A stretch of 61,505 nt of DNA, counting the filler, from Sphacelaria rigidula (taxonomy: Eukaryota): assembly GCA_964200075.2 (NCBI GenBank). It is 10 parts of 10 records of this genome, joined end to end, with 100 filler letters (N's around TTAATTAATTAA, not from the genome) between each part and the next. Parts side by side here need not be neighbours in the genome. Positions count along the whole stretch, not along the records: positions 18,484 to 24,544 come from CAXNAA020022501.1; 9 more parts are not named here. One strand, 5' to 3'. Numbering within the stretch: the first letter of the stretch is position 1; each line of letters begins with the position of its first letter. The translations under genes and the position numbers were made by a program. Below are positions 891 through 31,185 of this stretch, in pieces. Under the pieces are notes generated by a model, which had not been told where the DNA came from, did no database searches, and saw only the letters and a program-made list of their open reading frames with translations.

Positions 891-1007
891 CTGCTCGGGA
901 AAATTGTAGATGAGCTGCCTGTTGATGAAGACGTTGATTCCGTGGTCAACGATCTTTTGGCACTTTTTACGCATCTTGTCCTTCTCTGCCTCCTCGATCT
1001 CAGCCAC
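891..1007 (-). CDS. CCT2: CCT2 internal exon ([39 protein letters not shown])
   Basis: 117 nt, phase 0-0, TAG acceptor and GTATGA donor. Carries the [18 protein letters not shown] motif. The gene continues beyond the contig. Confidence 0.95.
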
Positions 1008-2529: not shown

Positions 2530-2668
2530 CTTGTTCATGGAGTCTACCCTGACCCTGGATCCGTATATCTTGATTTTATCCGTGTCCATAGCGGTATTGG
2601 CGATCAGGATCTTCGCATTCTCGACTACCTTCGGTTGCCCGATCCCGATTTTTTTGTCCAAGATGAAC
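2530..2668 (-). CDS. CCT2: CCT2 internal exon ([46 protein letters not shown])
   Basis: Apical-domain motif [28 protein letters not shown] acceptor and GT donor; in frame with the flanking exons. Confidence 0.95.
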
Positions 2669-2673
2669 CTGGT

Positions 2674-2707
2674 CAGCAACAGCAGCAGCAGCAGCAGCAA
2701 CAACAAC
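2674..2707. repeat. (CAG/CAA)n trinucleotide microsatellite, intronic
   Basis: Direct reading; lies just before a CCT2 acceptor on the minus strand. Confidence 0.9.
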
Positions 2708-2883
2708 GAAAGATAATCATCAACACAACGACAACGAACACAGCCCTCCAAGATGGAACCCACAATCGGATCTGTAAAAGAACGATCGTTGAAATCTGTC
2801 TCCAATCCTTCATCGAGATGCAGCAACAGCGGATTATTCACGCCTCTCACTTTTCCTCGATGTTTAACAAGAATAAATTACAG

Positions 2884-3186
2884 CATGGCCTGTAACGGGA
2901 TTTCGGGACGGGACCAGTTTCCTGTCACCACTGAACGTCGAGACGGGAACTCCCGTCTCGACGTCACGGGAGCGTTTCCGTGAAATATTTCCTTTCCATC
3001 CCGTCTTCTCCCGTCCTCACGGGAATATGCGTGTAACCGAAACCCCTCGGAACGAGCACGAGAAGGCCATTATTTTGCTCACGAAATGACAATCACCGGT
3101 GTTAAGGTACGACATCCTAATTGCTATAGGAAAAGGGTCCCCTTCAGTCCCATCCCGTTCCGTTCAAAGTCCAGTCACAAGCCTTG
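2884..3186. mobile_element. Degenerate MITE with about 17-bp imperfect TIRs and an internal perfect palindrome
   Basis: CATGGCCTGTAACGGGA versus the reverse complement of TCCAGTCACAAGCCTTG (13/17). 14-bp-arm palindrome at 2935-2964. Similar GGGACGG-rich text near 4330-4525. Confidence 0.5.
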
Positions 3187-4748
3187 GTTACGAAATTAGC
3201 GACCGCTTAACCCTTTTGGGACCGGACCCCCACTGACAGAGCGTTGACCCTGTTTTAATGAAATAATAAAAAATAAGTCTTCGAGCGAAATGCCCGATCA
3301 CGGCGAGGCGAAAATTATCGACCAGATCTGAACGACCAGCGCAGGGACTGTTGTCGAGTGTGGTGCCACTGCAAAAATCGTGTGGGGGCCCTGTCCCTGG
3401 CCCAGATAAGCCTCTCCAGGTTTCCAAGTGCAGGATGGTCGCGGCTTGGTTTTATGGTATTACTTGCTCTCAGTATACCGTCCCTGAGTTTTCCAGAGTG
3501 TTTTCTGGGTCCCAATTATTTACTAAAACGTAGTTATTTACGCTAACACAGGGTGGACCGGAAAAAACCGGGAAGGAATGTGCATGCCACAATGTGGTCA
3601 TTTTCACGAGGCACAAAATCCAGGTGGGCTGTGGAAAGACAAAAGGAGCTACCGTCATGAATTCTGCGTATCTCTTTGCCGATGACTTGCAGTGTGCAGT
3701 CCACATGTATGTTGTGGACGGGGATGACAAAGCTGTATATAGGCAGCTGAGAATTACCCAGAACGTGCAAGGGGGTATGCAGCAGCAGCTGCTGCTTCAG
3801 TCGGAGAGGCATACTAGACTGTACTGTACTATCCTGTTGTAGCATGCGCGCCGCAACGCTAATACCGTTGGAAGAGAATTTGCCGCATGCAACAAGGTGG
3901 GGAATGGCGATCCATTCCAACCACAAAGGGCTGTGTGGCAAGGTGATGGGGACAAAAGTATCATCCAAAGCCACAAGTGGTGGGCGGCCCGCCGGTCGTC
4001 GTATCCTGTTGGAAGCTCTTCATCACGACCCATACTGCTTGCTACATTGGATACCACCTAATGCCCACCCTGCACCTGAAAATAGATTGGAACTTTCGGT
4101 CTTTGTCATAATCCTGCGGTTACATACGAGGATTTTCAGCAACACGCCACTGTTTCGTGCAGACGCCAGACACGTCATTCCTGACCAGCCTCATTGATTG
4201 GTCTTTCTGGAGGCTCGGTCCCAAAAGGGTTAACTTTTCATGCCGAATGAAAGTTGAGAATAGGCTGTGGAAGATACCAGAGTCCGTTAAAATGTTCCCG
4301 CATGCAATATATGTTGAGCATATAGCCAAGTTTCCCTTCGGATCGGGCAGGAATCCCTGTTCAGTTGACGGCAAGTCCCGTGAAAAACATCAGAAGTTTC
4401 CCCGTGTGGACGGGACAGAAGGGGACCGTTTTTCCGTCGCCAACAACACGACGGGATGGGACGGGAATTCCCTTTCTGTCCCGCCGCGTGCGATTTCTCG
4501 GCGAGATTATTTTCCCGTGACACGCCCCCCTCAATGGCAGAAAGATCAACAAGTGAACACCAACAACAAAAAACTATAAGCTATGTTGACATAACAAACA
4601 GAAATAACGATGACCTGCTTTTGATTTATTCATTGTAAAAAATAATACTGAAAACAAAGAACACTTACGATATAGGTAAGTCATATTCCATCTTACAAAA
4701 TACCACTGAAAGATGACTCACGATAGATACAGCCATACTCAATCTTAC

Positions 4749-4907
4749 CCTTCCTCAAGGTAAGACTCCTTAAGGGAGCCCCCGGGCTTCTTGATAATCT
4801 GGATGTAATCGAGGTTTCCTGACCCTCGGAGTCTCAGCACCGCCTCCACGGCCAACGCGGCGAAGCGGTCCTTTTCGTGGGTCAGCAGCTTAGAGCTCAG
4901 CGTTGTC
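4749..4907 (-). CDS. CCT2: CCT2 internal exon ([53 protein letters not shown])
   Basis: Diagnostic [17 protein letters not shown] and GGSLxxSYLxEG motifs. AG and GTAAG boundaries; phases fit both neighbours. Confidence 0.95.
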
Positions 4908-5693
4908 CTTGAGACGTGATCAAAAACAAGAAATGAAAGCGGAAGAAATATGGGAGAAGACAAAAGCCGGAAAATCAAATAAACAACATATAGAAGTTTT
5001 GCCTCATGCACTGACTGTATAGGCGGGCGTATTAAACCTTGTTCGGCTGGCTGCAGGTTACCCATTTTAGACAGCTGATGTTCATAGGAAATTATTGTGG
5101 CTTGAATCTATATTCACGAATGCTCCCTGGAGTGAATAACGGTGATGAGAGGTTTCAAACGTCGGACAACTCATGGGTGAACGCATCTTTGTGAGTAATA
5201 CGTGTAACTCATTCAGTGAAGTAGGTACCGCTGATTCACAACGTATAACTCAGTCAGTGGAAAAAGGTGACCGCTGAGTAATATAATTTACCTCAGCGCT
5301 AAGTTGCACGAAAATGAGTTGAATCGATTTAAGGTGATGAGCGGTGTTGTCCAATGTGCGAGAGGTTCGCAGTAACATACTGAAAACGTGAGGCCGTAGA
5401 GTAATACGTGTTCTTTTGCAACACGACGGAACGAAATGGACAAACAGGGGAGGAAGGGGGAGGGGGGAGCAGAAAAAAAAAAAAACAGAAGAGAGAAACA
5501 AAATAGAAAATCTTTGACCACGAAATATTGGTCATTATTCAGCGAGTCCATGTATACGCCAGTATGAACGCGTTTTACTTTATTTCAATGTACAAATGCC
5601 TCAGCAGTAAAGATCCACTGAGCCTATTTTGTACGCACTGAGAGGGTTCAAAATACAAGAAATATGATATATAAACCGAAGAAAAATAGTTAC

Positions 5694-5812
5694 CTCGCGA
5701 TGTTCATAAGATCCTCCCTGAACTTGACATCATCCTTGCCGTTATCCTCCGCCGCGTCCGCCAGCACCTTCCTAGCGCAGGCTGTCGCTATCCGCCATCC
5801 CTGGATGATGGT
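5694..5812 (-). CDS. CCT2: T-complex protein 1 subunit beta, internal exon ([40 protein letters not shown])
   Basis: AG acceptor at 5814-5813 and GT donor at 5693-5692. The peptide matches the CCT2 segment TIIxGWR...VKFRxDLMNIA and splices in phase 2 to the next exon. Confidence 0.93.
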
Positions 5813-5813
5813 C

Positions 5814-5837
5814 TATATATATATATATATATATATA
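5814..5837. repeat. (TA)n microsatellite abutting a CCT2 splice acceptor
   Basis: Direct reading. Confidence 0.9.
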
Positions 5838-5934
5838 TTGCGCACGTATGAAAACACATGCACAATACAAGTATCGAAGTCTCGCCAACTTTTGCGTTGA
5901 AATCCGACATAATGGAAGTGATGCTATGGTGAGG

Positions 5935-6061
5935 CGGGGGAGGGGGGTATTCTCATGATCATGCATCCGGTAGTCATATGACCATCGACCTCATATCGCT
6001 ACAAAGCCGGGACAGAGCACGCCGAGTTTTCGCCGGACCAGGCTCGCAGTCAATCACCAAG
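5935..6061 (-). repeat. Dispersed repeat family C end
   Basis: Shares GGGATGCGAGGTCAATGGT..TGACTATGGCA.GCATGATCATGAG with 6162-6225, 18310-18383, 25745-25878 and 37273-37330. Confidence 0.75.
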
Positions 6062-6161
6062 NNNNNNNNNNNNNNNNNNNNNNNNNNNNNNNNNNNNNNN
6101 NNNNNTTAATTAATTAANNNNNNNNNNNNNNNNNNNNNNNNNNNNNNNNNNNNNNNNNNNN
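6062..6161. other. Artificial contig spacer N44-TTAATTAATTAA-N44 (stops in all six frames)
   Basis: Identical 100-bp spacer recurs every 6160-6161 bp. Confidence 0.98.
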
Positions 6162-6225
6162 TGTAGGGATGCGAGGTCAATGGTCTGATGACTATGGCAA
6201 GCATGATCATGAGTACACCCCCCCC
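6162..6225 (+). repeat. Dispersed repeat family C end (terminates GAGTACACCCCCCC)
   Basis: Direct similarity to the other family C copies. Confidence 0.75.
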
Positions 6226-7699
6226 TATCGTAGGAGACTCGAGAGTCCTGGAGGCCTGGGGAGTCACATGTTCGTCTGGGACCCCCGACAAATGGCGAAA
6301 TAGGATAAAAACCGAAAGGCCCTAATCTCGGCAAAGATCGTGATGACTCAAAGTACATGTATGCAGCATTCCAGGGTGTGCCTCCAAGAAACGGCGTTAA
6401 GTGTTTTGCTTTTGTGCAATGAGTGAGCTTGAAGGGTACACGCACCCAAATACTTGATTTCGGTACCAAACCAGACTTTTCGGGTACGTTGAACGTGAAA
6501 ACGATCCCACCACATAAGTTTTATCAGTAGCACAACTTTTTACAAATGTTCCTTGGACTGCTCCGCGACGCGCGATTTTTTCTTTGTTTCGAGATACTGC
6601 ACTAGCTTCAGGTGGTCTTCAAGCCGGGACCCCCGAAAGTCGATAAAGAGCGGAGAATATTTGACATGATTTCCGACAAAAACTTTCCCCATTTGGAAAA
6701 CCGAAACCTATCGAAGTGCCACGTTCGAGGGCGGTCGGAGCTTTTTTACGATAGACATGAGAGGAACCGTCAGGAGGTCTCCTAGGTCTCTACTGCATAT
6801 TATCAGAGGAAATCAGATAACGATGAAACCCCAAGTCACCGAAATGTCATCGTTTAGGGTATAATTCGATACTACACTGATCGTCCTCCATTTTTGTTTT
6901 TTCGTTACCATTTTCGGGTTGATGGCGGTTACTACGACTTGCAGCAGGTGAAGATTGGCTTGAACGTGGGTTGTGGCTGCGTATTTTGATTTCAGAACAA
7001 TTCCATGGGGGCTGATTGGTCGAGGTACCATGTTGCCCTTAGATTTACCACTATGACCTTGAACAAAACTCCCGCTGTATCACCCTCTTTTGGCGCCCAT
7101 GGCATTCAGTATGACACCATGTATGCTACTATTGGGTAGGTCTTGTGGGAAGTATTGTCATTATTTTATTAACTAATTTTGAGGGGTAAGCGTGAACAAG
7201 CCGGTACCTAATAAATGATTCGTGTGGGTGCATACGTCGTGAATAGTCGTCCAGGAGTGCCCAGCGAGTGGTGGACGCGATGCTAGGTGTCGCAGTCTGA
7301 CGAAAACCTAACGTAGATATTGGGGAGTAGTAGACTTCAATGCCAGCAGCACAAAGCCCGGAACGTGTCTGTCGACGAGAGTGTGCGAGGTATTCGCACT
7401 CACCTTGTCCTCGAAAAAACGCTAGTTGTTTACATACATGTCAAGCCATTCGAGCTATGACACCTGGAGGCCTGAAACCAGTCGATAACGCCCCCATAGG
7501 AGCATTACTACCTTCCTCAGTCCCGAGTGTGGTTTCAGCCGCGATTTCTGCGAAAGAATTAACTCGTGCTCCTCGCTAAAACACTCGCTGCTTGCCGACA
7601 AAGAGTAACAATACAACACCACGCCCCACCTCACCCTCACCCTCATGCTATTCGACCCACAGGCGGTTGGTACTGGGCAGCGGTCGAGAACCGCTTCCG

Positions 7700-7990
7700 C
7701 ACTGCCAGAAAAATCGACAGTGTGGACCGAAATGGAGCGACTGGTCATGTTTCGCCAGCTCCAAGTATTCCAGGCAGAATGTGAAGCTACCGACCGCCGG
7801 GCGATGTGGCGGAGGATGATCACCACCTTCCCGAACCGGTACAATGTGCATTGACGTGGTTAGGATTGCCACCCGACTCTGCTTCGACATCTTACGTCTG
7901 TAACAGAGATTTGCCTCGAGTTTACAACAGCTCTGTCGACACATTCAGACTACGCTCACCCATCATGTTCCTGAATGCCTAATTTGATAT
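7700..7990 (+). pseudogene. Possible decayed hAT transposase C-terminal remnant
   Basis: Frameshifted translation MWRRMITTFPNRY..IDVVRIA..L.FD.SYVCNR..VYN loosely resembles the hAT dimerisation W..FP..L..S..ER.FS pattern. Stops and frameshifts present; weak. Confidence 0.25.
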
Positions 7991-10900
7991 TAACAGTACA
8001 TTGGCTGACATGCAGCGAGTCGTCGCCATGATGCGCGCGACGGAGAGTGACGGACCACCCGCGACCGGCACCCGTGGGAGGCGATTCACCGGACCCGCGT
8101 CCAACACGAGGGCAGCGGGAAGGCGCGAGCGAAGGGGCGACGACGAGTGAACCCCAAGGCGAGGCACTGTAGCAGCTCCAGAGCTATGACCATGGATTAT
8201 CTGGCGCTTATGTGCCATTCCTCGGTACGCGTTTGGGATACGCTCGTGACGAATGTAATACCGGCTGCAATCTGCCTGGCCCTAGCCCTGTAGAACCTAG
8301 TGAAAGTTATTCAACACCAACTCACCCAGTAGCTCACAAGCAGCCCCCAGCAGCCCAGTTCTTTACAAATTATTGTCGGTGTGCTTTTCCTCGCAGATCT
8401 ACAGTTTTTTTTCTTCACCCCATTGAACTCGGGGAAGCTACTTCTCACGTTTTTCTTGGTACCTCTCCTCTTATTTTCATTTCGGCAATATTTGAGTTGA
8501 TTGCGAATGTATTTAAGCTGAAGTCTCTGAAAAAATTATGGAAGACTCTATGTCGTGTAAGGAATAACAGGGACGGTATTGAAAAGACGAGCCTACGTCT
8601 GTGACCGCAGGTTCGAGAGATCGGACTCATGTGCTGAAAAAGGGACAATAATAAATAAATGAGAGGCCTTGAACGTACACCGTGAGGGAGAGATGCAGCT
8701 GTCAAGGCGTATCGGAGCCCACGCGTAGCGTACCACGATCCCTGGTCAATTCTATGCGGGTTATTTTGCCACACCATCTCCCCATTCGACGTGGTTCCCC
8801 AGGGCCTATTGTTTCTCGTGAGCTGTTGTGTACTCGCAAGTGTTCTAGACCGGGATTGTTCTGCCCCGGTGCCCTCACGAACGGTAGCGGAGTTTACACG
8901 CGCAACGTTGTGGTGCAGAGAGCGTACGGACCAGAGACAGCCTATCATCTTACATGGAACCAATCAGAAAATGAGGGTATGGTCGGAAGTTTCCCAGTTT
9001 TACACCACTCACAGTCCCACAAAAACGTAAAATATACTGCGTTCTGTATGGCACTATGTTGCAACATTTTTTTTTGCGTACATAAAGTAGCCGGGTCCAT
9101 ACATGGCATGGTAGGTGTTTTCCCCTGCCCCATCCCCCTCCGGCCGTCACCTGGCCACCATCTGACTGCCGTTATCGGGAGTGTTTTCGGCCGCCGGGGA
9201 CCAGAGGGAGCTCGCACGGTCGTAGTCACAGCCAGTTATCACCGAGCAGGTAACCGTGGTCTTGCCTTCCACCCGCTTGTCGATAGGATGTCGCCTTCTC
9301 CTCGTACGACGGACACGACCCCGCACACCGCATGCAAAAACGGTCTTTGTCCCGCGATCTGGCTGGACACGATCAGCTAAAGTACGTCACTTCGTGGTAG
9401 TGTAGATCCCTTCCCTGCGAAGCACGTTCCCCCTGCTCTTCCGCCTTGGTCCACCTCGAAAACCGTAGGCGACCCTGTCCCGACTTGCACACCACGCTTG
9501 CCACGGAAAACCAACAACAAGAACTCGGAACATCGTTTTACATAATCCGTTGCATGTGCTTCATGTCGTATGCTAGTCGGTTTGAGTGAGGTATGCGAGC
9601 CTGTTAGTAACCTTCCCCCTCACTTGTCGCTCCTGCCCCCGTCCCCGCCCTCGCTATCCCCGTTCGTTACTCGTACGATCACACGCTTCACATATCTACG
9701 CCCCTCCAGGTGGAAACACGGCCGATAGCCGATAGCTCTGACCAAGCGCTGAATCAAGAGCGCCCGTGTTTCTCGTGCGGAGGGTCTTGTCTTCCGTGTT
9801 CGGGGCTCGAGGCGATGTTTCGTATATGTAGAGTGTCTGTCAGCGTCACGAGGCATGCACTGTAACCGTTGGTACATTCCGCGCATGATCGTATGTAGCG
9901 TTAAAGGTGTGATCGTGCACAAGGAAACGAGCTGCTGAAGCGCTGGGTAGTTGGTGGATTTGGCTCCACATGTATTTTTAAAGAAGTAGGATCAAGCGCC
10001 AGACCTACAGGGTGTGCAAGCCATAGGCGACGGTACGGCAACGCTAATATTGCAGACTAAAGCGTGTATGCAATGGCATAGGGCACGAAAACGTCATTAC
10101 GGTGTGAGCAAGTTGAACAAACCAGTTTTGGGGATTTGAACGATGAGGTCAGCCTTTCATTGAATCCTCACCCTGTGTGTAAGTCCCAGTGGTCTGTAGT
10201 GTAGTGAACGATTGATGTAAGGATGCCACCCACTTCCAATAATGCACCCGACCAAGATTATCTGTGAAATACTCCAGTCAAAACTTGTAGGACACCTGGA
10301 GATTCTATCTCTGTGCTTGGAGACACTAACCTGTTGGTATTCTTGTGTTAGCCATACTATAAGTGATACTATTCCCTAGGGAGGACTCAAGTGCTGGACT
10401 CAACATCTTTCCGCACGGTACCTTGCGTAGCTATCGGTATAGGTTGTTCTGACTGTAGCACTCAGATGGAGGCACATCGATTTCGTGTGAGATGCCTTCA
10501 ACATTGCGAACACCGGCTGACCATCTTGACCCAAACAAACCTCTGATGCTTTTCGATTGGGCCACGCCCATGCCTCAGCCGTACGAAGTCGAGCACTATC
10601 AGCCCTAGCCCAGCCCCACCTGTACCGTCCAGGCCTTTGGCCTATAGCGTACATAGACAGAGGTCACGGCGATACCTGAGTCTACCGCGATCTCCTGCGA
10701 TCGTTTCTGAGAGCCCTCTGGATGTATATTTCCCGCGTTGAGTCAACTTTGTAGTGTTGTCAAATATTTCGCGAGAGAGCAAGGGTTCTCAATGAAGCTC
10801 ACGGTCTCGAAACCCGCGCCCTCCTCTGGGGAGAAACTCAACTCCTCGGCCCACGGAAATTGCTAAAATCGCCACATCTAACCATGTGAGCGAAAACCCC

Positions 10901-11499
10901 ACGCTGAAATCAAATATAACGCAGTCATAAGAACCTCCCAAACTCGAGTAGATGGCAAAGTGATAGGCTTTTCCCAATTTACGAGAATATTTGGCATATT
11001 TCGTTCACCTGCTCATGTTCCCTGTGACCGTTTGCAGGTGGTCGTAGAGTATGTGATTTCAGTTCAGGTCAGATGAAAGTCTCGCTCTTGCGGTGCCGTT
11101 AAACAGCCATGTGAACGTTTGTAGACTGCCTTGGGCAGGGCGTAGTAGTAGTGATTTTTCATTTTTGAAACACGTTGCAAAAAATAATGGAGTGAGATGT
11201 CATGCGGCGGGGAGGATCGTCGATGTGCAAACAACTATGACCGTGTGTTCATATAATATATTGCTACTTCCTCTGTCCCATACGTTAGGTGCACTACATT
11301 TGTACAGGTTTCTCACCGTCTTCGACCCTTTTCCCGGTTTTTATTTTTATCGATTGTTTAGGTGTCCTTAGATTTCAAGCCTGCATTGCCTTTTGACCCA
11401 CGTCCACTTCCACCATGCGGCCGAACGGCCGCAAAAAATGAGTAGGCCCGGAAACGGCTATTTTTTTTACCCCGTCACTGTCTCTCAAATAGTTATTTT

Positions 11500-12040
11500 T
11501 GTTCTCCATCTTCCTTCTTCGATGCATGTCTTTTTTATATAGGGAGGAGGATTCAGTGGTGCCCTTCCCCGACCGCGAAGTCGAATTTTGTGTAATCACG
11601 ACATAGTCGCCCTCCACGGATGGGCATCTTATTTTTTTTGTCGCACTTTGCGCCCCTCCGCTTCCTCGGGACGAGTCCGTGGTCTCAAGGGACCATCCTA
11701 TCCATCCCCCGGTACACGCCTTGCATTTTGCTCTCGTGGATTGGGTCAGCACTACCGCACCGCGTCAACTTACGTCAAACAAACTCAGTCGACTACTACT
11801 TTGTTTACTCACGTTCTCATGCTTTTCACGGTGGGAATCAGACATTACGAAGAAAAAAGCCCAAGCATCGGGAATTGAACCCTCGCTCTCTCCACCCTAA
11901 TGGCGACAGTCGGACCATGACACCACCGGGACGAGGCATGATTTCAGAAAAAGTCCTGGATCGTGTGACTTCGCCGAATTTTCGAGCCTACGGTCCAATA
12001 GAAGGTTTCGAGGATACCAGCTGAACCACCGGGACGACCG
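11500..12040 (-). mobile_element. SINE family A copy interrupted by a SINE family B insertion
   Basis: Family A body at 11500-11627 resumes at 11935-12040 with the tRNA-like head. Confidence 0.7.
11628..11934 (-). mobile_element. SINE family B (tRNA-like head, A-rich tail), GGCAT target duplication
   Basis: Minus-strand head has A-box-like TGGTGTCATGG and B-box GGTTCAATTCC; tail AAGTGCGACAAAAAAAA. GGCAT at 11623-11627 and 11935-11939. Homologous to 38360-38692. Confidence 0.75.
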
Positions 12041-12149
12041 GATATGAATTCGTGTGCTCTTGTGGGAGGCATTTCCCACCTGAAGCCATGTTGTCGTTTC
12101 TAATTATTTTTGCCTTCGTTTTGTTTGCTTTTTTCGGTTTCACTGTTTT

Positions 12150-12222
12150 GCCGGTCGCCCCGGTGGCTCAGTTGGTAACCTCGTAACCTTCTGATGGTTG
12201 AGTTGGGGGATTCGATTCCCGG
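12150..12222 (+). mobile_element. SINE family A tRNA-derived head (truncated by contig end)
   Basis: A-box TGGCTCAGTTGG and B-box-like GATTCGATTCC. First about 50 nt are identical to 61455-61505. Confidence 0.8.
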
Positions 12223-12322
12223 NNNNNNNNNNNNNNNNNNNNNNNNNNNNNNNNNNNNNNNNNNNNTTAATTAATTAANNNNNNNNNNNNNNNNNNNNNN
12301 NNNNNNNNNNNNNNNNNNNNNN
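12223..12322. other. Artificial contig spacer
   Basis: N44-TTAATTAATTAA-N44. Confidence 0.98.
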
Positions 12323-12727
12323 GGTGGGATACGTGACACGTGACGTTTTAACGGGACACATGCGAAAACACGTAACTTTGGATCATTTAACGCTACGTGA
12401 GATTTGATTTTTTGTATGGGACATACGTAACGTAACGTGATGTAACGTGTGGTCCTTCGCATGAACCCCAACATTGCGTTTTACTTTCCAAATGTGACGA
12501 AAACTCTGCTTGTTTTCGTGAATATGTCACGTGTCACGTTGAAAAAAACACAAAAGCAGCCTGTTTTACATCTGGAAAACACCAAGAGACACTACTTCAA
12601 AGTACACATGTTACATGACGTTACGTTGCATTTGTCCCGTCCGAAAAATCAAACCTTACGTAGCGTCAAATGGCCCGATGTTGCGTTTTTTCCCGGTTTT
12701 TTCAAATGTGTCACGTATCCCTCCCTG
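12323..12727. mobile_element. MITE with TIR GGGATACGTGACAC / GTGTCACGTATCCC (CCCTG terminus, hAT-like)
   Basis: Perfect 14-bp inverted match at 12326-12339 and 12708-12721. Left end clipped by the contig edge. Confidence 0.7.
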
Positions 12728-14858
12728 GAAATAACTTGTACAAAAACACAAAACACGTGACATCAGTGTCCGAGAAGCCAAGCGTTACCTTCCCGCTACA
12801 CCGCGTGCTCAGCGTCCATCGCTGTCTGGAGGAAATACGGAAATAGTGGCCAAATGACCTAGCTCATGATCCGGATCAGTACTCTAGCAAAAAGTAATAT
12901 CCAGGTAGCTCATTTGCTGTCCGATGTGTGCAATATATAGACCTGTATACACGTGAAAGGATCTCGCCCAGGGTCCCGGACACCAACGTACTGACGCCGA
13001 CATCCTTAACCAAAAGAAATCCGATGAAACAAACCAATATCAAAATTTGGTTTGTTCAAGTATCGGTTCCGATACGTAGGCTTCGGTGTCAATACATCGG
13101 GAGGGCCCAAAACAACAAGTTCACTCCACGAGGCCATGTACGAGGAATACGAGAGTTGGCAACGTTTGGTTTAGCAAAACCAGCGCCGACGAGATCGTTA
13201 CACGTTGAAACAAGGCATCACCAAAGGGTTCCGGACGTACCTTCTTTTGTCGTCAGCAAAGCTTTCGTCAGCATGCATGTATCATGAATTCAACACCTTT
13301 CCCAAAAACTCACAATGTTACATACTACCCCCAGCGCTCTGAGCTTTCCATGTGCTGTGTGAAAAGGAAACAGACCGTTTGAGAGTGCTACATTCACCGA
13401 GGAGTGACAAGAGTTAACCCTTTCGGAATTTGCCAAAAACAGTCAGAAGTCCCATATGCGGGCTTTCGTCACTGGGAAATCGTCACTTCGAGTTCGGTGC
13501 ACGAATCTGTCACATTGGTATACTCGGAGTTGTGTACTGTTTTGGTCGGCCGGGATCGTCAACAGTTGCAGAAAAACAACCATTTTTTGCCCCCTTCCCC
13601 CAAAAACACGAATTGCAAATCCGTCATTTTTCCATCAGCGGTTTCGAAAGGTTCAAGCTGGCTACAAATAAAAATGCTTCAGAAACTCTTCTACTGCTGA
13701 GGGGATTTCCGCTTACCGCACTTCTGCCGTCAGAGGTATTCGTTAGCACAACAAAAGCTTTTGACATGTTTTGGCCGTGTTCGGGTACATGCGGTAAACC
13801 ATCTTCCTGATTCCCGAACCCAAACATTTCATCGGTCTACAATGCTGTCGTCCTCCATCATGGGTTGTTCTCAAGGCTCGTTGGGTGAACTGACTGGTCC
13901 CTTCCTGTACCCTTCGTACAATATCGGGGTGTGGGGTGGGTGGCTTGTCTTCAACTTCAAACCTCAGCCGCCTCACTGATTTTTCAATCACCGTCATTAT
14001 ATATATTTCTCTGACATGCGGTCAACGCCCATCAATTTACCAAAAAAGAACAACGTACGTTTCTGCGTCCAGCAACGTTCACTCTCGACACGTGAAAACA
14101 ACGTACACTCTGGAAAATGTACTGGGTACAGTATGGGCATATCGCAGATATTGTTCATCATGAGTTGCGATAGGCCTATACTTCACCCAGTACATACTTG
14201 TCTATTGCATATTTTGTCCATATTTTGTCGAGGGCGTGAACAACTTCATGTCCAGATGTCCGACTATATAAGTCCGACAGCTCAATTGCTTGGATGCAGC
14301 GTAACCCCCCCCCCCCCCCCCGCCCCGAATATTTGAGCACATGTTCATCGTGGTGCGTGGTGCAAATCCAAACTCCCGGACCACTTCTTAGTTAAGAAGA
14401 TAATTTCGAGCCAAATATCACATCTTGTTGCTGTCTCTCTCGCAGTGTTTCCAGAGAGGCCTCCTGACACAGCCGATAAAAACACAAAAATGAATTCTAC
14501 GCCGCAGCGCCTCACTGTCCAACTTGTACAATTCAAACAAGGTACTGTAGGTCGAAAGAACGGCGGTTCGTATGTCGCCAGATGCATATGCCCCCTTTTT
14601 TTTTCTCGACAAATGTTTGATTTCCGTTGCTAAAACATGAGGACGTGTGTAGCAAAACAAATTCTATTAGATGAGAGTTCACCGCCTTCGACAGTGCTAA
14701 TCCAATCTGATTCAATCCAAGCCGCGATAATGACAAGAGGTAAGACGTGTGTACCAGGGGGGACGGGACGGGACGGGTTGCTCCCTTGAGACACGGACTC
14801 GTCCTGAGGAGGGAGAGGGGTTACGCGTGTGACGAAAAAAAAACAACAACGTTCGTAC

Positions 14859-14972
14859 CTCGGTTCGAACGCGCGTATCCGGCGCACCGGTCTGCGACGT
14901 GTCGGATTCGATTGGGCCTGAGCCCCTATCCGACTCAGCCGCTTCATCTCCCTCCTCCTGCTCTACCGGATC
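14859..14972 (-). CDS. Probable acidic low-complexity exon (DPVEQEEGDEAAESDRGSGPIESDTSQTGAPDTRVRTE)
   Basis: 114 nt, phase 0-0, TTTTCAG acceptor and GAG|GTACG donor. Compatible with the exon at 15633-15755. Confidence 0.5.
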
Positions 14973-15632
14973 CTGAAAATAAGAACGGTGCACACAGTAG
15001 ATTTTGCGGTATGTAAAGGGTGAACACCGAAACAAGTCAGAAAATGTATGGAAACCCTTCCCCGCCTTTCCTCTCCCTTCCTCCCCTCCCCCAAACAGTA
15101 GAAATTATGGAACAATGGAAACGACAACAACCACAACAACAACCGATCCTACCTTAGACGAAGGGGGAAGTGGAGGGGGTCTTGATCGCACAAAAACAGG
15201 GGGACTCATAACTGACACGACTTCACAGAAGGGTCGTGACCACAAGTACAGCCTCGAGGACAATATTCTGGCGTTGCGAACGCGCGTGTCGGGTTTGCTC
15301 CTGAAGATGCAGGGACACCTCGACAAGACTCCTACGCGGCTCGTAGACACCTTTCACTCCCTGCCCCCTCCCTCCAGACTCTGAACAACAGCAAAACAGT
15401 CGACACCATCCCCACCGAATACCAGCACATCCAGCACAACGACAACTACACCTACATCGACAGCAACAACACCGACACCTACATCAACAGCAACAACACC
15501 GACACCGACACCGGCCCCACCCCCAACAGCAACAGCACCGACAGCACAGATAGCACAGATAGCACCACCAACACTTCCTCCATCGAAGACCAACATAACC
15601 AACCGCCAACGACTTCTCATCACCGTCCTCAC

Positions 15633-15755
15633 CATGAGCTTATGGCCCGCTCGCTTGTGAGTAACGCAATATCGTGGGCGGAAACGCGGGTCGCCCCAAC
15701 ACGCCTCCAACTTGCAGCCGCGTCCTTCGCACGCTTTCATCGGACCCTGCGTTCC
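15633..15755 (-). CDS. Exon with one EsV-1-7-like Cys/His repeat (KACEGRGCKLEACWGDPRFRPRYCVTHKRAGH)
   Basis: 123 nt, phase 0-0, CAG acceptor and ATG|GTGAGG donor. C-x4-C...G...YC-x2-H-x3-G spacing as in the repeats at 20976-22191. Confidence 0.65.
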
Positions 15756-16146
15756 CTGTGAGGTTATTCGCGTTGAAATTCGTTCGTAAAGCAGGAGCAT
15801 CAAAACAATCAATGAGAGAATACACGGTGAGCGCAAGAACAAGAGAAAACAACAAGTCATGTATGCACACAACTGTTATATGGTGTTGTATGCATATGAT
15901 CGAATAGATTCGAAAGTAGTGCGTGCGGGGCGCGCAACCGAATCACACTTGTTCAACCTGCTGTGCTACTACTGTGTGGTACGCGAAAATTGTACAGCAT
16001 TCTAGTACTATATGGTGCTGCACTCGCTGTACTGCGGAGAAACCGCGTTGTTTCGTATCATGGTCTGCTTGTGGTTCACAGTAAAAAACAATGGGATAGC
16101 TCGTACGACACGTATTAATGCCGACCGGTGTGTATATATATATATA

Positions 16147-16728
16147 CTTCCTCTCACACATAAGTTAGCTCGATTACGAGCTTTTAACCGTTTGTCCATT
16201 CGAACTCTTCCCAATCATCCTATGGTTGGGTTCGTTGGAAAGATGAAGCGCCAAAAAGCTGATGCAAAGAACAAAATTGAAAAAGAAGTTACTTGTCTAT
16301 ACTAAAATGACGTCAAAATATGCCCATTTTGGCCCATTTTTGGTTCACGTATACCCCAATTTTGACTGACTTTGGACGTTTTGACGTTTAACACTACCAA
16401 TTACATGCTGCAAATCTGTTTGATGGGGCGTGCGTAGGTTAACGACACGGAGATATTCAAAATCAATGGCTCTTTCGCGATTTTCACGTTTTTTCGTGTT
16501 CCCGGATCCCCCATGCTTACTGGTAAAAGAGCGAAAAATTACCGTTTTTTGGTCGACCTACTTTTCCTCGACCGCGAGACTGCACGCGTCGAGCACCCAC
16601 GTTGTAGGAAGAGTGTTGCTTCTGGCTAAAAAAACGCCAACGAATGCAAGAAAAGCATCGAAAATCAGATCGGACACAGGTAAGGGCTCGTAAAAACATG
16701 ATCGAGCTAACTTATGTGTCAGAGGAAG
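16147..16728. mobile_element. Tc1/mariner (Stowaway-like) MITE with 28-bp TIRs and TA target duplication
   Basis: TA|CTTCCTCTCACACATAAGTTAGCTCGAT ... ATCGAGCTAACTTATGTGTCAGAGGAAG|TA, one mismatch. Related ends near 11265 and 36806. Confidence 0.85.
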
Positions 16729-18483: not shown

Positions 18484-18650
18484 TTTTCCCTCGTCCACCA
18501 TCAAGTCGAATTCTGTGTACCCACGACATAGTCGCTATCCACTGTTGGCCATGGTGTGAGAAAAAATCCCAGATCGCTCCGAGATTTGAACCCACGACCC
18601 AACCGTCATAAGATTCCGAGGTTATATCAACTGAGCCACCGGGGCGACCG
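18484..18650 (-). mobile_element. SINE family A, 5' half
   Basis: Reverse complement reads CGGTCGCCCCGGTGGCTCAGTTG...GGGTTCAAATCTCGGAGCG followed by the family body. Confidence 0.8.
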
Positions 18651-19227
18651 CCGCGGTGGGGGCAGGCCATTTGGATCATGCATACTTGCTTCGAGTGAAA
18701 ATTGATGGCGATTCACCAGGTGAACTACCCTCGCGGTCTATCGAAAAAAGACGTGAAGAAACGTTAGTAGATAATGTTTGATGGGGAATATCATTGAATT
18801 TTATTGACTAACACTAACACTAACCCCGACCAAAGGCGCACGAGACCCTCGGGCGAGGAGGGTGCATAAATTTCCCTAGGCAAAGTGTGCGTTGGCAGAC
18901 TTCGAATCTTCGCGGCAGGCTCCGATTTCGACAAAAACACGTTTTGGACGAGCTGGGTCCACTGCTCACCTGCCCCAAACCATTTTCTAAATAATTTTAT
19001 CAACTCTAAAATCGAGCAGTCACCCTGTCAACCATTGTGTACGAACATTTCATCAGGTCTACTGCTGTAAGGGTCAACGGGCCTCTTATTATGCTAGAAA
19101 CCAACGTGTCGTGTAACAATTTAAAAGGTGGATGTCACGCTGGTCGGGAAAAGATGTCACTCTCATTTGGATATTCAACTCTCAATTTCACGAAAACATT
19201 GTTGGCCGCAGATGGAGTCAGTGGCTA

Positions 19228-19530
19228 GTCGTGGGTTCGATTCTCGGAGCGATTTGGGATTTTTCATCACACCATGCCCAAGAGTGGAGAGCGATTCACG
19301 TCGTGGGTTCACAAAATTCGACTCAACGGTCGACGAGGGAAAGGGAGTGTTGGCAATCCCCTCTCGGGGTAGAAAATAAATGCAAGCACCGCAGAAGGAA
19401 TGCGGAGTACAAAAAACAAACAAAAAAGAAGACACTTTTGTGTTGGTCTTTCTCTCGTGTGACCCCGGCTAGTGCGCCCACATATAACGGAAGGTGTAAA
19501 CTAACTCCAGAATAGATGGGACGACAACAC
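19228..19530 (+). mobile_element. SINE family A, 5'-truncated, through to the GACAACAC tail
   Basis: B-box GGTTCGATTCT, then body and 3' end GCGCCCACATATA..GAAGGTGTA..CCAGAATAGATGGGACGACAACAC shared with other copies. Confidence 0.8.
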
Positions 19531-20780
19531 CACCCCCCCGGGGATCCTCTCGGTTGTCCCCGTTATTGTTGGTTCGTTGTTGACCCGTGTCGCATGCCAC
19601 GACAACGTACATATTGAGTGAGGGAGGGGATCCAGATATGGGCCCGGAGCGGTACGAGTAGCTGAATCTATCGCGGTTCAACAATCGCGGCACAAGGCAC
19701 AAGATACTGATATTACTGCAGAATCATAATGAACCGGAGCTGGCTCGCCCTAGAGCACTACCGCCTTGGTCGGGATCGCTTTCAAACCATGGCGGCAGCT
19801 TCACAAGGATCAAAATATTCTTGAAAAATGTATGTATGCAAACGTACAGTTTGGCACGCCATGCTAGGCCTCGCCTCCATCCTAAAAACAAACCATCCAC
19901 ACCATATCAAATGCCGTGTTATCTCAACTCGCACACTAATACACCACAGACGATCGACACCGATAGAAACACTCACAATACATGTACAACGCGCAAAATA
20001 GAACACACCCCACCTTTGTATCACCATCAACCCGCGATATATCGACCATGTGTGAAATCGCGTAAAATCGCCCCCGTCTAGAGACGATAAATACGATGCA
20101 TGGCATCAACGGAGATATCGTCTCTATATCGTCCCGATACAGAACCCTGCAATAATATACGTATGTCACGCTAGCACAAAAGCTACCATGCTGTAACAAA
20201 AGTAAAACGACATCACGGAGACACGACCTACAGTAACCGTCACTGACTTGTCGAATCTATGAACATTATATGATCCAACGGCACCCTTTTATGCGGTCGT
20301 CTGTATGCAGACACAGCAGCACTGAATCAATGGCTTTTGCGATTCGGCCATAAATCCGCAAAATGGAAAGCTGCCCCCCTTCTCTTACCCTCTTAATGTG
20401 CTTACTAGAGAACAACAAAGCCGCAATGTACTTCAGGGATGACTACGGGTAGTTCCGTGTGTATTATTGCTGAGCTTCGCGTGTAGTGCTCATCACCAAG
20501 TACATTTTCCGCAAGTCGCATCTTAGCGATTGCACGAGATAGCCCGTATGCTGGTGTTGCGGTCATACCAGCGTACGTTACACGCGCGATCAGGGGGAAG
20601 AGAAAAAGCCATGCACACCATGAACATAATTCATCACTTTTTCCCCACCAACACTGTGAGAAACGACCACGCTCAACCCCAGACCGACCGCAAGATCGAA
20701 ATACACACACAAACACGCACGCAAACACATTATACAGGAAATCACACACAGCGGGCACGACCGCCGCGTTTACAGCAGAG

Positions 20781-20866
20781 ACGCGACCCCTGTCCTCCGC
20801 CGTGAGCGACACGCGACCTCCGTCCTCAGCCGTAAGCGAAACGCGACCTACGTCCTCCGCCGTGAG
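20781..20866. repeat. 30-bp tandem repeat, about 3 copies
   Basis: Units of ACGCGACC..GTCCTC.GCCGT.AG start at 20781, 20811 and 20841. Confidence 0.9.
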
Positions 20867-20975
20867 TTTGGCAGGCTACTTCGACACTCGCCCACATACA
20901 GTATCCAATCCCAGCTGTCACTAGGGCGACTCCTCTCCTGATTGAATCGACAGATAACGGCCAATTTGGCGCGTT

Positions 20976-21636
20976 CTAGTAGCGGCTGGGTATACGGAGA
21001 TTGATGGCGATCCGGTCCACCTGCGAGTAGTCCACGTACTGCTTCTTTTGGGTGCGACGGACGCCCCCGGGCCGCCACACGTTCACCATGCCGTCCTGCG
21101 CATGCCCGGAGCAGTACTCCGCCTTCTTCGAACCTTCCTCCCCATACTTCGGCTGCTTCGAACAGCCTGAGTAGAGGCATCTCTTCGCCCACACCGCCAC
21201 CATTCCTTCTTGCGCGTGGGTGGCGCAGAACTCCGCCTTTTTAGACCCTTCGATGCCGTAAGATGGGTGCTTGATGCAACTCTCGTGGGCGCAGCGTCTC
21301 TTCATCACATCCACCATGCCCTCGAGAGCGTGCCCAGCACAGAAGTCCGCCGTCCTGGTCCCTGGGATGCCGTAGGACGGGTGCTTTGTGCAAGTCTCGT
21401 GCGCGCACCGTTTCTTCATCACATTCACCATGCCCTCGTATGCATGCCCGGCGCAAAACTGAGCCTTCTTCGTCCCATCCACGCCAAACGACGGCTGCTT
21501 GTTGCAACCTTCGTGGGAGCACTTGTTCTTCATCACATCCACCATGCCCTCGAGCGCATGCTTTCCGCAGTACTCCGGCTTCCTCGACCCCTCAACGCCG
21601 AACGATGCCTGCTTGCCACAGGCCTCGTCGCCACAC
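20976..21636 (-). CDS. EsV-1-7 cysteine-rich repeat protein, exon 2 (5 repeats plus tail)
   Basis: Five roughly 38-aa units C-x4-C-x-K-x-P/A-S/K-F/Y-G...(E/D/Q)-F/Y-C-x2-H-A-x2-G-M-V-x-V. CAG acceptor at 21639-21637; stop at 20978-20976 (3' end could alternatively splice at 21020). Confidence 0.9.
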
Positions 21637-21913
21637 CTGACAAGGTTTCGTGAGATTGAGAATAGAGCGCTGCTTGAGAGTGGCTTTGATCACTTGCTTC
21701 AACTAGCCAATTTTTCATTCCGTGTGTGTTTTTCCTTGCTACACGTCGATATGCTACTCGGGGATATCAAGGGCCTCAGTGGTAAGCTACTACAGGACGC
21801 ATGTCGGGCCTCGTGGAGGGGAATTTCGGAACTGAAACGATTGATTCACTAATTGAATGCTTTCGACTTTCAATTGTATCCTCTACTCTCAATCTCACGA
21901 AGAACATTGTTAC
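21637..21913 (-). mobile_element. GT-AG intron made entirely of an inverted-repeat element (Introner-like candidate)
   Basis: 5' end GTAACAATGTTCTTCGTGAGATTGAGAGTAGAG versus reverse complement of 3' end CTGACAAGGTTTCGTGAGATTGAGAATAGAG. AGGT at both junctions. Related sequence at 30806-30850 and 31070-31185. Confidence 0.7.
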
Positions 21914-22191
21914 CTCTTGTTCATCAGGTTCACCATGCCCGGTAGAGCATGCACGCCACAATACTCCGTACTCCTGGAGCCTTCCCTGCCGAACGATGGC
22001 CTCTTGAAGCAGCCCTCATGAGCGCATCTCTTGGACACAACATCGACCATGCCAACCAGGGCATGCTCGATGCAAAACTCCGCCTTTCCGACCATCGGCA
22101 GGCCATACGACGGCCGCTTCTCGCACCCATCGTTCTGGCACCTCTTCCTCTTGCGACCTGTGAAAGGCACCTCTGCGAATTGACTAGACAT
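21914..22191 (-). CDS. EsV-1-7 repeat protein, exon 1 (MSSQFAEVPFTGRKRKR plus 2 repeats)
   Basis: ATG with an in-frame upstream stop; AG|GTAAC donor. Joined CDS is 278+661 = 939 nt = 312 aa plus stop. Confidence 0.88.
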
Positions 22192-22989
22192 CTCGATCTT
22201 CTTGTGGCAGCGAAGAACGCAGCGTCAACAAACCCTCAAGCTCCTTCCCTGGCAGTGCTGCTGTAGCAGGTGAGCGTACCTGAACCGGCGTTCTGCCGTA
22301 GCTTGCGACGCTGAACCGTCTTTGTCCGCTGCTGGCGGGCCGTCCGTGGGGTGGCAACGAGTAGATCCAAACACTCGACGCTCTGCCCTGATCGTTTATG
22401 CTACGCTGAAGACGCCTGGAATGTGAGGGTGCAGGGACGAGAGGGTAACAAAAAAGCACTGGTAAAGACAGCTGTTTACGGAGGATGAACCGGTCGGGGA
22501 GGGTGTTACCAATACTGCTCACCTAACGGAAACGCCGAGGCATGGCTGTCGTCTTGGTTGTTTCCGGCTTTCATCAACCAGTAAATCTGATGACACGATC
22601 ATCACATACTGTCACAACAGTTTGGAAAAAATCGTCCGCCCTGTCATATCTAATGAACTCCACGAGATACGGGTTGCCCAACCTGGACGTCTCTCACTCA
22701 CTATATCGAACGGTACGTTTGTGCTTTTGACAAGCCGGCTACGAACAAACAACTCGCCTCAAGAATGGCGCAAGAGCTGATGCCACATGCACTCGACTCA
22801 GCGAAGCAGATATCCTGCTACATTCTGGAAACCTTTTACACGTGGAAAGCAAGTCGTGGTTCGTCCAATCCGATTACAACCCAGCAGGTGTTTCGGAGAA
22901 AGCCCAAAATTGGCCGCTTTGATCAACTGCTCAGTGAAGTCGCCTCGAGCCACTGTCACGTACCCCACATACATCACGTGGGTATGTAG

Positions 22990-23140
22990 CACACCCTGGA
23001 CAACGACAATAGAATGCCTTGTCAAAAAGCGTACTGCGTACATTGTGGAATCCATTGTCCATTGCAATGGACGATAAAGTCGAAACTATACGCAGTACAC
23101 TTTTTGACAAATGTGATCTATCGTCAATATCCGGGGTGTG
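22990..23140. mobile_element. 151-bp palindromic miniature element with family D termini
   Basis: Arms pair along the whole length around TTGCAA. Ends CACACCCTGGACAA / TATCCGGGGTGTG resemble the termini at 41867, 42981, 55277 and 55845. Confidence 0.75.
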
Positions 23141-24354
23141 GTGTGGTGGTGCAGACAAAATCAAGCAGGGCTTAAACCATTCTGGACGCAAGTGGTACAA
23201 TATCGAGACACCTCCCGCCACACTCGCGTCAAGTTAGACCGAGCTTTACTCCGTGCTTGACGTGACATACAAACAGTACAACCAAGCATGCTGCACCAGG
23301 ATCTTCTTCACCATGCAGTGGCCCACACGACACCACAAGGACCTTCACCGCATCCCAAAATAACAGCGCTTCTTCAAACACCAGAAGTCAGCGGTATCGC
23401 AACTCACGACGGGCGGGGCCAGCTCAACAACGGCTAAAAGTTGCTCACACCACAGCTTTCCCAGTTTCCCGAATGGACCCGATATAAGCGTATCACTGTG
23501 ACGTGCAGACCGACCTGGTAACACACGGCACCGCCGCTGAATAAAAAAAAAAATGAAAAAAATGTGCTGCATAATGTGTGACCTTAACGACGGATGGGGA
23601 AAAAAAAAAAAATCGGGATTCGAACTCATGACGTCGATAATTAGAGTCTCCCATCACTTGAATTACAGGGGGTGCAACAGCATCACGCGAAATGTTGCAC
23701 GCACGGCCCAATCCGACTACTCTCGAGCTGAAATTTCAGCAAGACCTCTTGCACCCAACCGAGTGATACTTCACGTGAGCAGCTGCAGATTCTCATCATT
23801 TTCCTGGATTTCGTGGCATAATCTTGTTTTTGCTGAAATTTCGAATCCCCATCACTTCCTTTTTTTATTCCTTCATTCGCTGCTTACGTGATCTTGTGCG
23901 TTTCGATCATAAAAAGCTCATGTCGAAAATTTCAGCGTCGAACTCCTAATATCGCGCCGTGCGTCTCCTGAGCGAGGAAACCACCCGTTGTTGGCTGGCT
24001 CAGCTCGTAGGGCGCACTACGACAAAGACCGGCTGCAGGGATAATAACCTCGAGCAAGTCTTGAACTTGTGTGACCAGCTCTTTCAAGGACAAAAATATG
24101 CGACGCCTGTTATTAATCCCCACGACCGTGAGGGCAGTCCATCTGAACCATGCATACTTATTTCAAGTGATATCGATGCCAATTCAATAGATGGTCTCAT
24201 CTCGCCGTCCAAGGGTGAACCTAGGGGTGTTCTGCTCAGCATCTGTACCGGTATGGACACCGATATTTTCGTCTCCCCTCGCAGATCGTAACGCACGGCC
24301 GAATATGACAAGGTCGCTGCCGAGAATCATCAGCTTCTAACCGTACTGTCATGC

Positions 24355-24544
24355 GTTAGAGGACCGCGTGCTCAGGGGACCGCATCGGAATTTAAACGGC
24401 CCTATGTTTTGGGGTAAGGGTTAGTGTTGGGGTTAGGGGCAGGGGCATGGTCCCTGCAGAGACTGGCTCGATTGGTTGTGGAAAACGTCGATCCTGAGGT
24501 GTTTTGAACTACGATGCGGTCCTCTAAGCACGCGGTCCTCTCAC
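24355..24544. mobile_element. MITE with about 30-bp TIRs and a telomere-like core
   Basis: GAGGACCGCGTGCTCAGGGGACCGCATCG versus reverse complement GAGGACCGCGTGCTTAGAGGACCGCATCG (27/29). Internal GGGTAAGGGTTAGTGTTGGGGTTAGGGG. Confidence 0.8.
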
Positions 24545-30805: not shown

Positions 30806-31069
30806 CTCAATCATATCATCTACTCTCAAACTCACGAAAACACTGTTAAACCTGAAACCCCCCAAAATTTCTCCTTCACCTTGGACCCCACCATTTCGGT
30901 TAGCGGAATCCAAATTTGTACGGCGTGTATGTAGTAGTTGTCAATGGCTATAAATAGGTGAAGAAATGGAACCACCTTTCGAATATTTGGTGTGGATACG
31001 AAGATTTTAATTCTCCGGGTTTTCATCCCCATCGCGTAAAATAAATCCCGTGTTATTATACTCGTACGT

Positions 31070-31185
31070 AGGGCCTCGTGTACGGGCATTTCGGAACTGA
31101 AACGATGATTCCACTAATTGATCACTTTACACTCTCAGTCAGTCGTGCCCTCCAATCTCAATATTGATAATGAAAACACTGTTTG
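31070..31185. repeat. Copy of the element arm that forms the EsV-1-7 intron (second arm end at 30806-30850)
   Basis: GGGCCTCGTG..ATTTCGGAACTGAAACGAT..CACTAATTGA is shared with 21806-21856. Confidence 0.75.

Follow-up and report, generated by a model that had tools for sequence, protein, structure and literature searches.

The DNA analysed here is a stretch of 61,505 nucleotides from Sphacelaria rigidula (assembly GCA_964200075.2), referred to below as the window. It consists of ten pieces of approximately 6,061 nucleotides with N spacers between them, and the locus of interest lies in the piece at 18484-24544 (CAXNAA020022501.1). Translation of the minus strand of this piece revealed an open reading frame that starts with an ATG at 22191, ends with a stop codon at 20976-20978, and is interrupted at 21913-21637 by an intron. 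The intron is occupied, except for its terminal GT and AG, by a MITE-like element with terminal inverted repeats. The positions of the gene, the intron, the element, and the further copies of the element in the window are collected in Table 1.

Table 1. Gene, intron, and element features of the locus and further copies of the element, in window coordinates
Feature	Position	Strand	Details
Upstream exon, coding part	21914..22191	-	EsV-1-7 repeats 1-2; Pfam PF19114 E 1.8e-31, 2 stretches
Upstream exon, 5' UTR	extends to 22415	-	RNA-like contig cover 21912-22417
AG acceptor of second intron, in 5' UTR	22416-22417	-	shared loose end of RNA-like contigs; pyrimidine run precedes AG
Downstream exon, coding part	20976..21636	-	EsV-1-7 repeats 3-7 and stop; PF19114 E 1.3e-84, 5 stretches; RNA-like contigs 20300-21634
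Spliceosomal intron	21637..21913	-	277 nt; GT..AG; interrupts codon 93 (AG|G) in phase 2
MITE-like nonautonomous TIR element	21639..21911	.	273 bp; whole intron except GT and AG; ends at family boundary
Left inverted-repeat arm	21639..21722	.	core 21647-21667 closely paired; looser pairing as far as about 21722
Right inverted-repeat arm	21827..21911	.	core 21881-21901 closely paired; looser pairing begins at about 21827
Upstream 4-bp direct repeat AGGT (ACCT on +)	21912..21915	-	supplies exon-final AG and intron GT
Downstream 4-bp direct repeat AGGT (ACCT on +)	21635..21638	-	supplies intron AG and exon-initial GT
Terminus of diverged family copy	19159..19203	+	BLAST E 6e-7; flank GGCC; same contig as intron, downstream of gene
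Terminus of second copy, cut by contig start	30806..30847	+	BLAST E 5e-8; flank AAAC
Right half of third copy	31068..31183	+	BLAST E 5e-14; 83% identical over 71 nt; flank TGAT

The host gene and the splicing of its intron

Both exons of the gene encode tandem cysteine-rich motifs that match Pfam PF19114, which places the product in the EsV-1-7 repeat protein family. When the two exons were joined in a script, the spliced coding sequence comprised 939 nt and encoded 312 amino acids, arranged as seven units of exactly 38 residues with a tail after the last. The 38-residue period is unbroken across the splice junction, which falls between units 2 and 3. This is the single junction, out of the six between repeats, that carries an intron, as the preliminary description of this DNA had noted; the other five are without one. 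In the unspliced frame, a stop codon is reached immediately after the residues KR, because the split-codon G is then followed by TAA.

A protein search with the gene yielded 227 candidates, 83 of them with E ≤ 0.001, and the best match was 51% identical. The named relatives all come from brown algae (Sphacelaria rigidula itself, several Ectocarpus species, and Laminaria digitata) and are at most 55% identical, in agreement with the brown-algal host that had been assumed. Other proteins of Sphacelaria rigidula were present among the database proteins of 120-384 residues, while the protein encoded here (20979-22191, minus strand) was absent from that set; the public annotation may thus lack this gene or carry a different model of it. 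The possibility that the gene is an unexpressed remnant of an integrated virus was considered and rejected in view of its introns and of the RNA-like contigs that cover it.

Splicing of the intron was assessed with contigs from public sequencing runs. Among 11 listed runs, one that is DNA-like (X1) and three that are RNA-like (X5, X6, and X7) were compared; the figures for X5 and X6 are identical, and these two are probably one data set. The RNA status of X5 to X7 is a tool's guess combined with the coverage pattern. In all three runs the contigs break off at 22417, where they share one loose end, and their depth is 0 at 22421-22622, compared to 67.6 in X1. We took these runs as RNA because of this absence of depth and because of the shared stop at the AG acceptor. 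The same stop at an AG acceptor that follows a pyrimidine run indicates a second intron in the 5' UTR. A motif taken from the loose end, which would mark the upstream 5' UTR exon, was not found in the window.

One contig in each of X5, X6, and X7 (depths 138.6, 138.6, and 188.9) omits exactly 277 nt. The joint as aligned (21634>21912) can slide over as many as 4 letters; when it is shifted by +2, the omitted stretch has the ends CT..AC on the plus strand, which is the predicted GT..AG junction 21636/21914 of the minus strand. The preliminary description had made its proposal depend on an RNA junction of 21914 to 21636, and this exact joint is present in the three RNA-like runs. It had also stated that splicing would restore a single AGGT with the frame intact, which is borne out by the 312-residue reading frame and its preserved repeat period. 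In X1, the region 20300-23300 is covered at a flat depth of 67.6 and only the filled site is represented, with no intron-skipping contig.

The joined contigs could also be taken to represent an allele or a strain that is free of the insertion, in which case the element would be polymorphic and, as it would not be spliced, would break the gene in the assembled strain. In favour of this, a contig looks alike whether an RNA was spliced or the site was empty, a single AGGT remains at the joint in either case, and no contig bridging exon and element was among those listed for the RNA-like runs. However, the listed RNA-like contigs show no other letters and no gaps relative to the window over 20300-21634 and 21912-22417. 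This points to the same strain and argues against an insertion-free allele. Furthermore, the DNA-like run, which has the same organism code, contributes no joined contig, and the joined form follows GT..AG on the coding strand. We consider an empty allele quite improbable and read the joint as the product of splicing, with the understanding that such contigs inform on neither the share of unspliced RNA nor the strand.

The inverted-repeat element and its family

The two ends of the intron are inverted copies of each other. Their core arms are 21 nt long and 95% complementary, and local alignment of the left half of the intron with the reverse complement of the right half extended over approximately 85 nt with a score of 57; 300 shuffles scored 20.5 on average (sd 3.8) and 37 at most. 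In the left arm, the outermost 10 nt carry substitutions and a short gap relative to the family end. On the coding strand, the locus reads AG-GT(273 bp)AG-GT, and 4 is the only length of direct repeat that fits directly beside both ends of the element. These results support, on the minus strand, the preliminary account of a GT..AG intron with inverted ends, with looser similarity reaching about 85 nt inward and AG|GT at both junctions. It should be noted that ordinary introns also show AG|GT..AG|GT, as AG is preferred at the ends of exons and G at their starts; because of this, the direct repeat alone is weak evidence of an insertion.

The arms also contain sequences that resemble splicing signals. 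In the intron RNA strand, the 3' arm is pyrimidine-rich and carries the YTNAY-like motif CTCAC approximately 16 nt before the AG. The 5' arm has an internal GTGAG 15 nt inside the intron, which according to the contigs is not the site used. The intron RNA is predicted to fold into one long hairpin in which the ends are paired, with a free energy of -78.6 kcal/mol (z -4.4), and none of 200 shuffles was predicted to be as stable.

Searches of the window showed that the element is not unique. The 21-mer of the arm, with up to 3 mismatches allowed, had 4 matches in the window compared to 0.00 expected from 100 shuffles. The occurrence of the arm on another contig, which had been pointed out previously, was confirmed for two copies, and a third, diverged copy lies on the contig of the intron itself (Table 1). 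Within about 60 kb of sampled genome there are thus five termini of the family, with unrelated flanks. By local alignment, no left arm was found for the copy at 31068-31183 or for the diverged copy near 19000-19203. The intron copy is the sole complete copy in the window and has the 4-bp AGGT repeat on its flanks; the other three are one-ended. The same 21-mer pattern had no match in metagenome contigs. Matches of a 15-mer of the arm to viral contigs (at least 116 loci) were attributed to chance: among the matches listed by BLAST, the similarity scarcely extended beyond the 15-20-mer, and the best was 51 nt at 78%.

The five termini define where the element ends. When they were oriented outward and compared in all 10 pairs, the inner 12 bases were identical at 9.1 of 12 positions and the outer 12 bases at 3.5 of 12, which is close to random. 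The boundary of the family follows ...TGTT in four of the five termini and ...TGTC in the fifth, which is the other end of the intron copy. The bases beyond it are unrelated: ACCT and AGGT (the latter at the reverse-complemented end) for the intron copy, and GGCC, AAAC, and TGAT for the others. Since the similarity ends after ...TGTT and the flanks differ, the element ends 2 nt inside each splice site. The inverted repeat therefore begins directly inside GT and AG, as had been described, and the other copies, when aligned with the intron copy, have their termini at the same place. The GT and the AG accordingly lie outside the element, in what is probably the duplicated target. The ends of the intron and those of a mobile-element copy thus coincide to within these dinucleotides, and this copy is spliced from the transcript with the frame kept, the RNA status being taken from the coverage pattern; these are two of the properties expected of an Introner.

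The element family is very abundant in the genome. In X1, the summed contig depth over three successive 100-nt bins of the element was 36,655, 226,090, and 356,444. Relative to the depth of 67.6 next to the element, this is an approximately 540- to 5,270-fold excess, and 1,075 contigs had at least 95% likeness to it, figures that do not represent a copy number. The further termini in the sampled 60 kb are in line with such abundance. In the RNA-like runs, the summed depth over the element was 716 to 16,456. The large number of X1 contig pieces that are at least 95% like the intron copy indicates that a large family of low divergence surrounds this copy. The earlier suggestion that the insertion is not very recent is thus doubtful.

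With a length of 273 bp, terminal inverted repeats, and no coding capacity for a transposase, the element has the properties of a MITE. A transposase-encoding, autonomous partner with matching termini is absent from the window. Its superfamily was considered from the bases next to the termini. MITEs derived from Tc1/mariner (Stowaway-like) insert at TA and duplicate TA, and those derived from piggyBac duplicate a TTAA target. The dinucleotides adjoining the five termini are AC, AG, GG, AA, and TG, and the corresponding tetranucleotides are those given above; neither derivation agrees with them, and a TNA target is likewise a misfit with the flanks. A 4-bp duplication other than TTAA would be reminiscent of Sola-type elements. 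Elements of the Sola type are present in Ectocarpus, as stated in the available part of the literature on that genus.

Origin of the intron

The intron of the EsV-1-7 gene was most likely created by the insertion of a MITE at an AGGT within an exon, with both splice sites provided by the target duplication. The target would have been an intronless array of EsV-1-7 repeats, and a nonautonomous TIR DNA transposon of about 273 bp, belonging to a very abundant family, would have entered an AGGT at the boundary of repeats 2 and 3. Repair of the staggered cut would have duplicated the AGGT to give AG-GT(element)AG-GT. The spliceosome would then take the GT of the first AGGT copy and the AG of the second, and removal of GT(element)AG would leave a single AGGT, that is, the coding sequence as it was before the insertion. 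The inverted-repeat ends would present the same tips in either orientation. In addition, the arms would provide a pyrimidine tract and the branch-like CTCAC, and the predicted hairpin would bring the two splice sites together; in these ways the arms may aid splicing.

This proposal draws on the anatomy of the element, the family boundary, the base-exact joint in the contigs taken as RNA, the repeat period regained on splicing, and the abundance of the family. The five intronless repeat junctions of the gene are indirect evidence for a gain. From the element ends, the direct repeat, and the exact RNA-like junction, the transposon-generated intron gain proposed in the preliminary description is well supported at the EsV-1-7 locus of this brown alga. 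The 4-bp repeat is probably a target-site duplication, as judged from one copy, and we infer that the insertion made the intron and not the reverse. The mechanism itself is one already described for Introners elsewhere.

Two other histories of the locus were considered. First, an old intron may already have been at the site, with the MITE inserted into it later and the remainder of the intron lost or too short to see. MITEs are common in brown-algal introns, 34.1% of the TE bases of Ectocarpus being intronic according to the part of the published analysis at hand, and the available text of the Phaeoexplorer preprint describes brown-algal introns as mostly ancient and stable. However, only GT and AG lie outside the element here, and an old intron would accordingly have been 4 nt long. 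Moreover, when the adjoining exon bases are included, the outer dinucleotides are part of a direct repeat of 4 bp without mismatch, and the five other repeat junctions of the gene are intronless. An older intron at this site is very improbable.

Second, the direction could be reversed, in that a structured intron may have seeded the repeat family by way of RNA, through reverse splicing or retroposition, as has been proposed for fungal introner-like elements. The intron RNA with its predicted long hairpin would suit such a route, and so would the abundance of the element sequence in the RNA-like runs. On the other hand, terminal inverted repeats together with a flanking direct repeat are the signature of a cut-and-paste DNA transposon. 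The other copies end at the terminal inverted repeat and not at GT/AG, and they have unrelated flanks, whereas intron copies carried by RNA would include the GT and the AG. Neither a poly-A tail nor other retro-type features were found in the copies examined. An origin of the family from the intron is thus extremely improbable, and the insertion of a MITE into an exonic AGGT is retained as the origin of the intron.

A separate question is whether the family as a whole deserves to be called an Introner family in the usual sense, in which numerous introns of different genes are alike in sequence. The intron may be insertion-born and nevertheless be a one-off, in which an ordinary, untargeted MITE happened to hit an AGGT, with no specialised Introner family behind it. 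The flanks of the other termini (GGCC, AAAC, and TGAT), taken with those of the intron copy, show no preference for AGGT, the tips of the element are without a splice dinucleotide of their own, and none of the three other copies in the window, all incomplete, is evidently an intron. [quoted passage not shown] Against a one-off stands the very high abundance of the family. Furthermore, whichever way the element is inserted, its arms would bring along a pyrimidine tract and a branch-like motif and would allow the two ends to pair, so that further insertions into exonic AGGT would be expected to be tolerated and to accumulate. Weighing these points, we lean slightly towards a one-off event. This bears on the label of the family alone and is compatible with the insertion-born origin of the intron at the locus.

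The alternative for the family is that, in this multicellular brown alga of the Sphacelariales, the MITE is active as an Introner family, with a dozen or more young introns of this kind. Each insertion into an exonic AGGT, in either orientation, would then be removed precisely as an intron from the outset, and in a family of such high copy number repeats of the intron-making event are plausible. On the few flanks available, the family appears to be without AGGT targeting, so that exact intron births would be a small fraction of all insertions, of which the tolerated ones would accumulate. An active family is conceivable and is, in our estimate, rather unlikely.

Comparison with known Introners, and further repeats in the window

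In the available part of their report, Gozashti et al. (2022; PMC9860276) described Introner families that recruit both splice sites wholly or partly from the target-site duplication (TSD) or from the insertion site, as well as families in Symbiodinium with TIRs and a 4-bp TSD. Compared to these and other known cases, the Sphacelaria element shares individual features with several. First, the Introners of Florenciella sp. (PMC9860276, Fig. 2E) are alike in that the element contains neither GT nor AG, both being taken from the insertion site, and in that splicing leaves the length of the mRNA unchanged. Unlike them, the Sphacelaria element has long, clearly recognizable TIRs and is flanked by a direct repeat of 4 bp, and its host is a multicellular brown alga. 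More than 100 introns are given for Florenciella in the supplement rows seen of the 2022 study, compared to a single documented one for the Sphacelaria family. Second, the Introners of Symbiodinium microadriaticum (PMC9860276, Fig. 2B) likewise have TIRs, and their 4-bp TSD, which contributes a splice site, corresponds to the putative TSD of the Sphacelaria element. According to the passages available, they carry their own 3' splice site and obtain the 5' site from the TSD, whereas at the Sphacelaria locus both sites would come from the duplication.

Third, IE1 of Micromonas pusilla (review PMC11282704) resembles the Sphacelaria element as a short, MITE-like TIR element that is removed as an intron, and it has a TSD, putative in Sphacelaria, with a splice site in the duplicated target. 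As described in the part of that review at hand, IE1 has a 3-nt TSD, one splice site within the element, and thousands of intronic copies; the Sphacelaria locus, in contrast, has a 4-bp repeat and both splice sites outside the element. Fourth, the single TE-derived introns treated in the same portion of PMC11282704 are similar in that a TE in an exon is tolerated since nearby splice signals permit its removal. Compared to these, excision at the Sphacelaria locus is base-exact, uses a canonical GT-AG that probably derives from the duplication, and involves a family of very high copy number.

The preliminary description had raised the possibility that a family of this kind has not been described in brown algae, and a search of the literature found no report of Introners in these organisms. 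In the accessible supplement of the 2025 Introner survey, the rows of the two Ectocarpus assemblies (E. siliculosus and Ectocarpus sp. CCAP 1310/34) end in '0 0', in columns of unread meaning, and 12 of its 13 files contain no rows for five other brown-alga names. The Ectocarpus rows seen in the Gozashti 2022 supplement likewise carry zeros, the meaning of the columns being unread there too. The words 'introner' and 'intron gain' are absent from the 2025 Ectocarpus TE paper, and 'introner' and 'MITE' are absent from the available text of the Phaeoexplorer preprint.

The origin of spliceosomal introns is an old question, and there are few clean cases in which the event itself can still be traced. 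The EsV-1-7 locus still displays the target, its probable duplication, the ends of the element, the exact splicing, and the undisturbed period of the protein repeat. If the family has done this repeatedly, Introners would be extended to a complex multicellular lineage, with a testable rule by which insertions into AGGT targets make introns. An active Introner family, if true, would be the first in brown algae and an exception to the reported stasis of their introns. If the event was a one-off, it would be a textbook example and nothing more. So far, it is the single example of intron birth in this family.

Several further repeats were observed on the same contig. A large inverted repeat (18485-18598 / 19228-19342) has arm segments of 43 and 67 nt that are 86-88% complementary and approximately 630-770 nt apart, and it encloses the diverged element copy at 19159-19203. 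This structure is possibly another TIR element, of larger size, that has received a nested insertion. Strings in its arms that resemble a T-arm, at 18560-18650 and 19210-19300, were considered as possible tRNA genes, and ARAGORN found 0 genes on the contig. Upstream of the EsV-1-7 gene there is a palindrome of 92 nt (23019-23110) with 46-nt arms that are 80% complementary, a perfect centre, and no spacer; its depth in X1, 186-695 compared to 67.6, points to another repeated small hairpin element. At the end of the contig, an inverted repeat (24355-24396 / 24503-24544) has 42-nt arms at 86% and 106 nt apart, which, together with the other repeats, suggests that the genome is rich in MITE-like elements.

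Two coding features were recorded elsewhere in the window. On another contig, a stop-to-stop frame at 15354-15875 (minus strand) contains a single EsV-1-7-like cysteine motif beside a valine/glycine-rich low-complexity run. In the first piece, an exon of the chaperonin CCT-beta lies at 2530-2670 on the minus strand, and its 47 residues match a Sphacelaria rigidula protein with 100% identity over 98% of their length.
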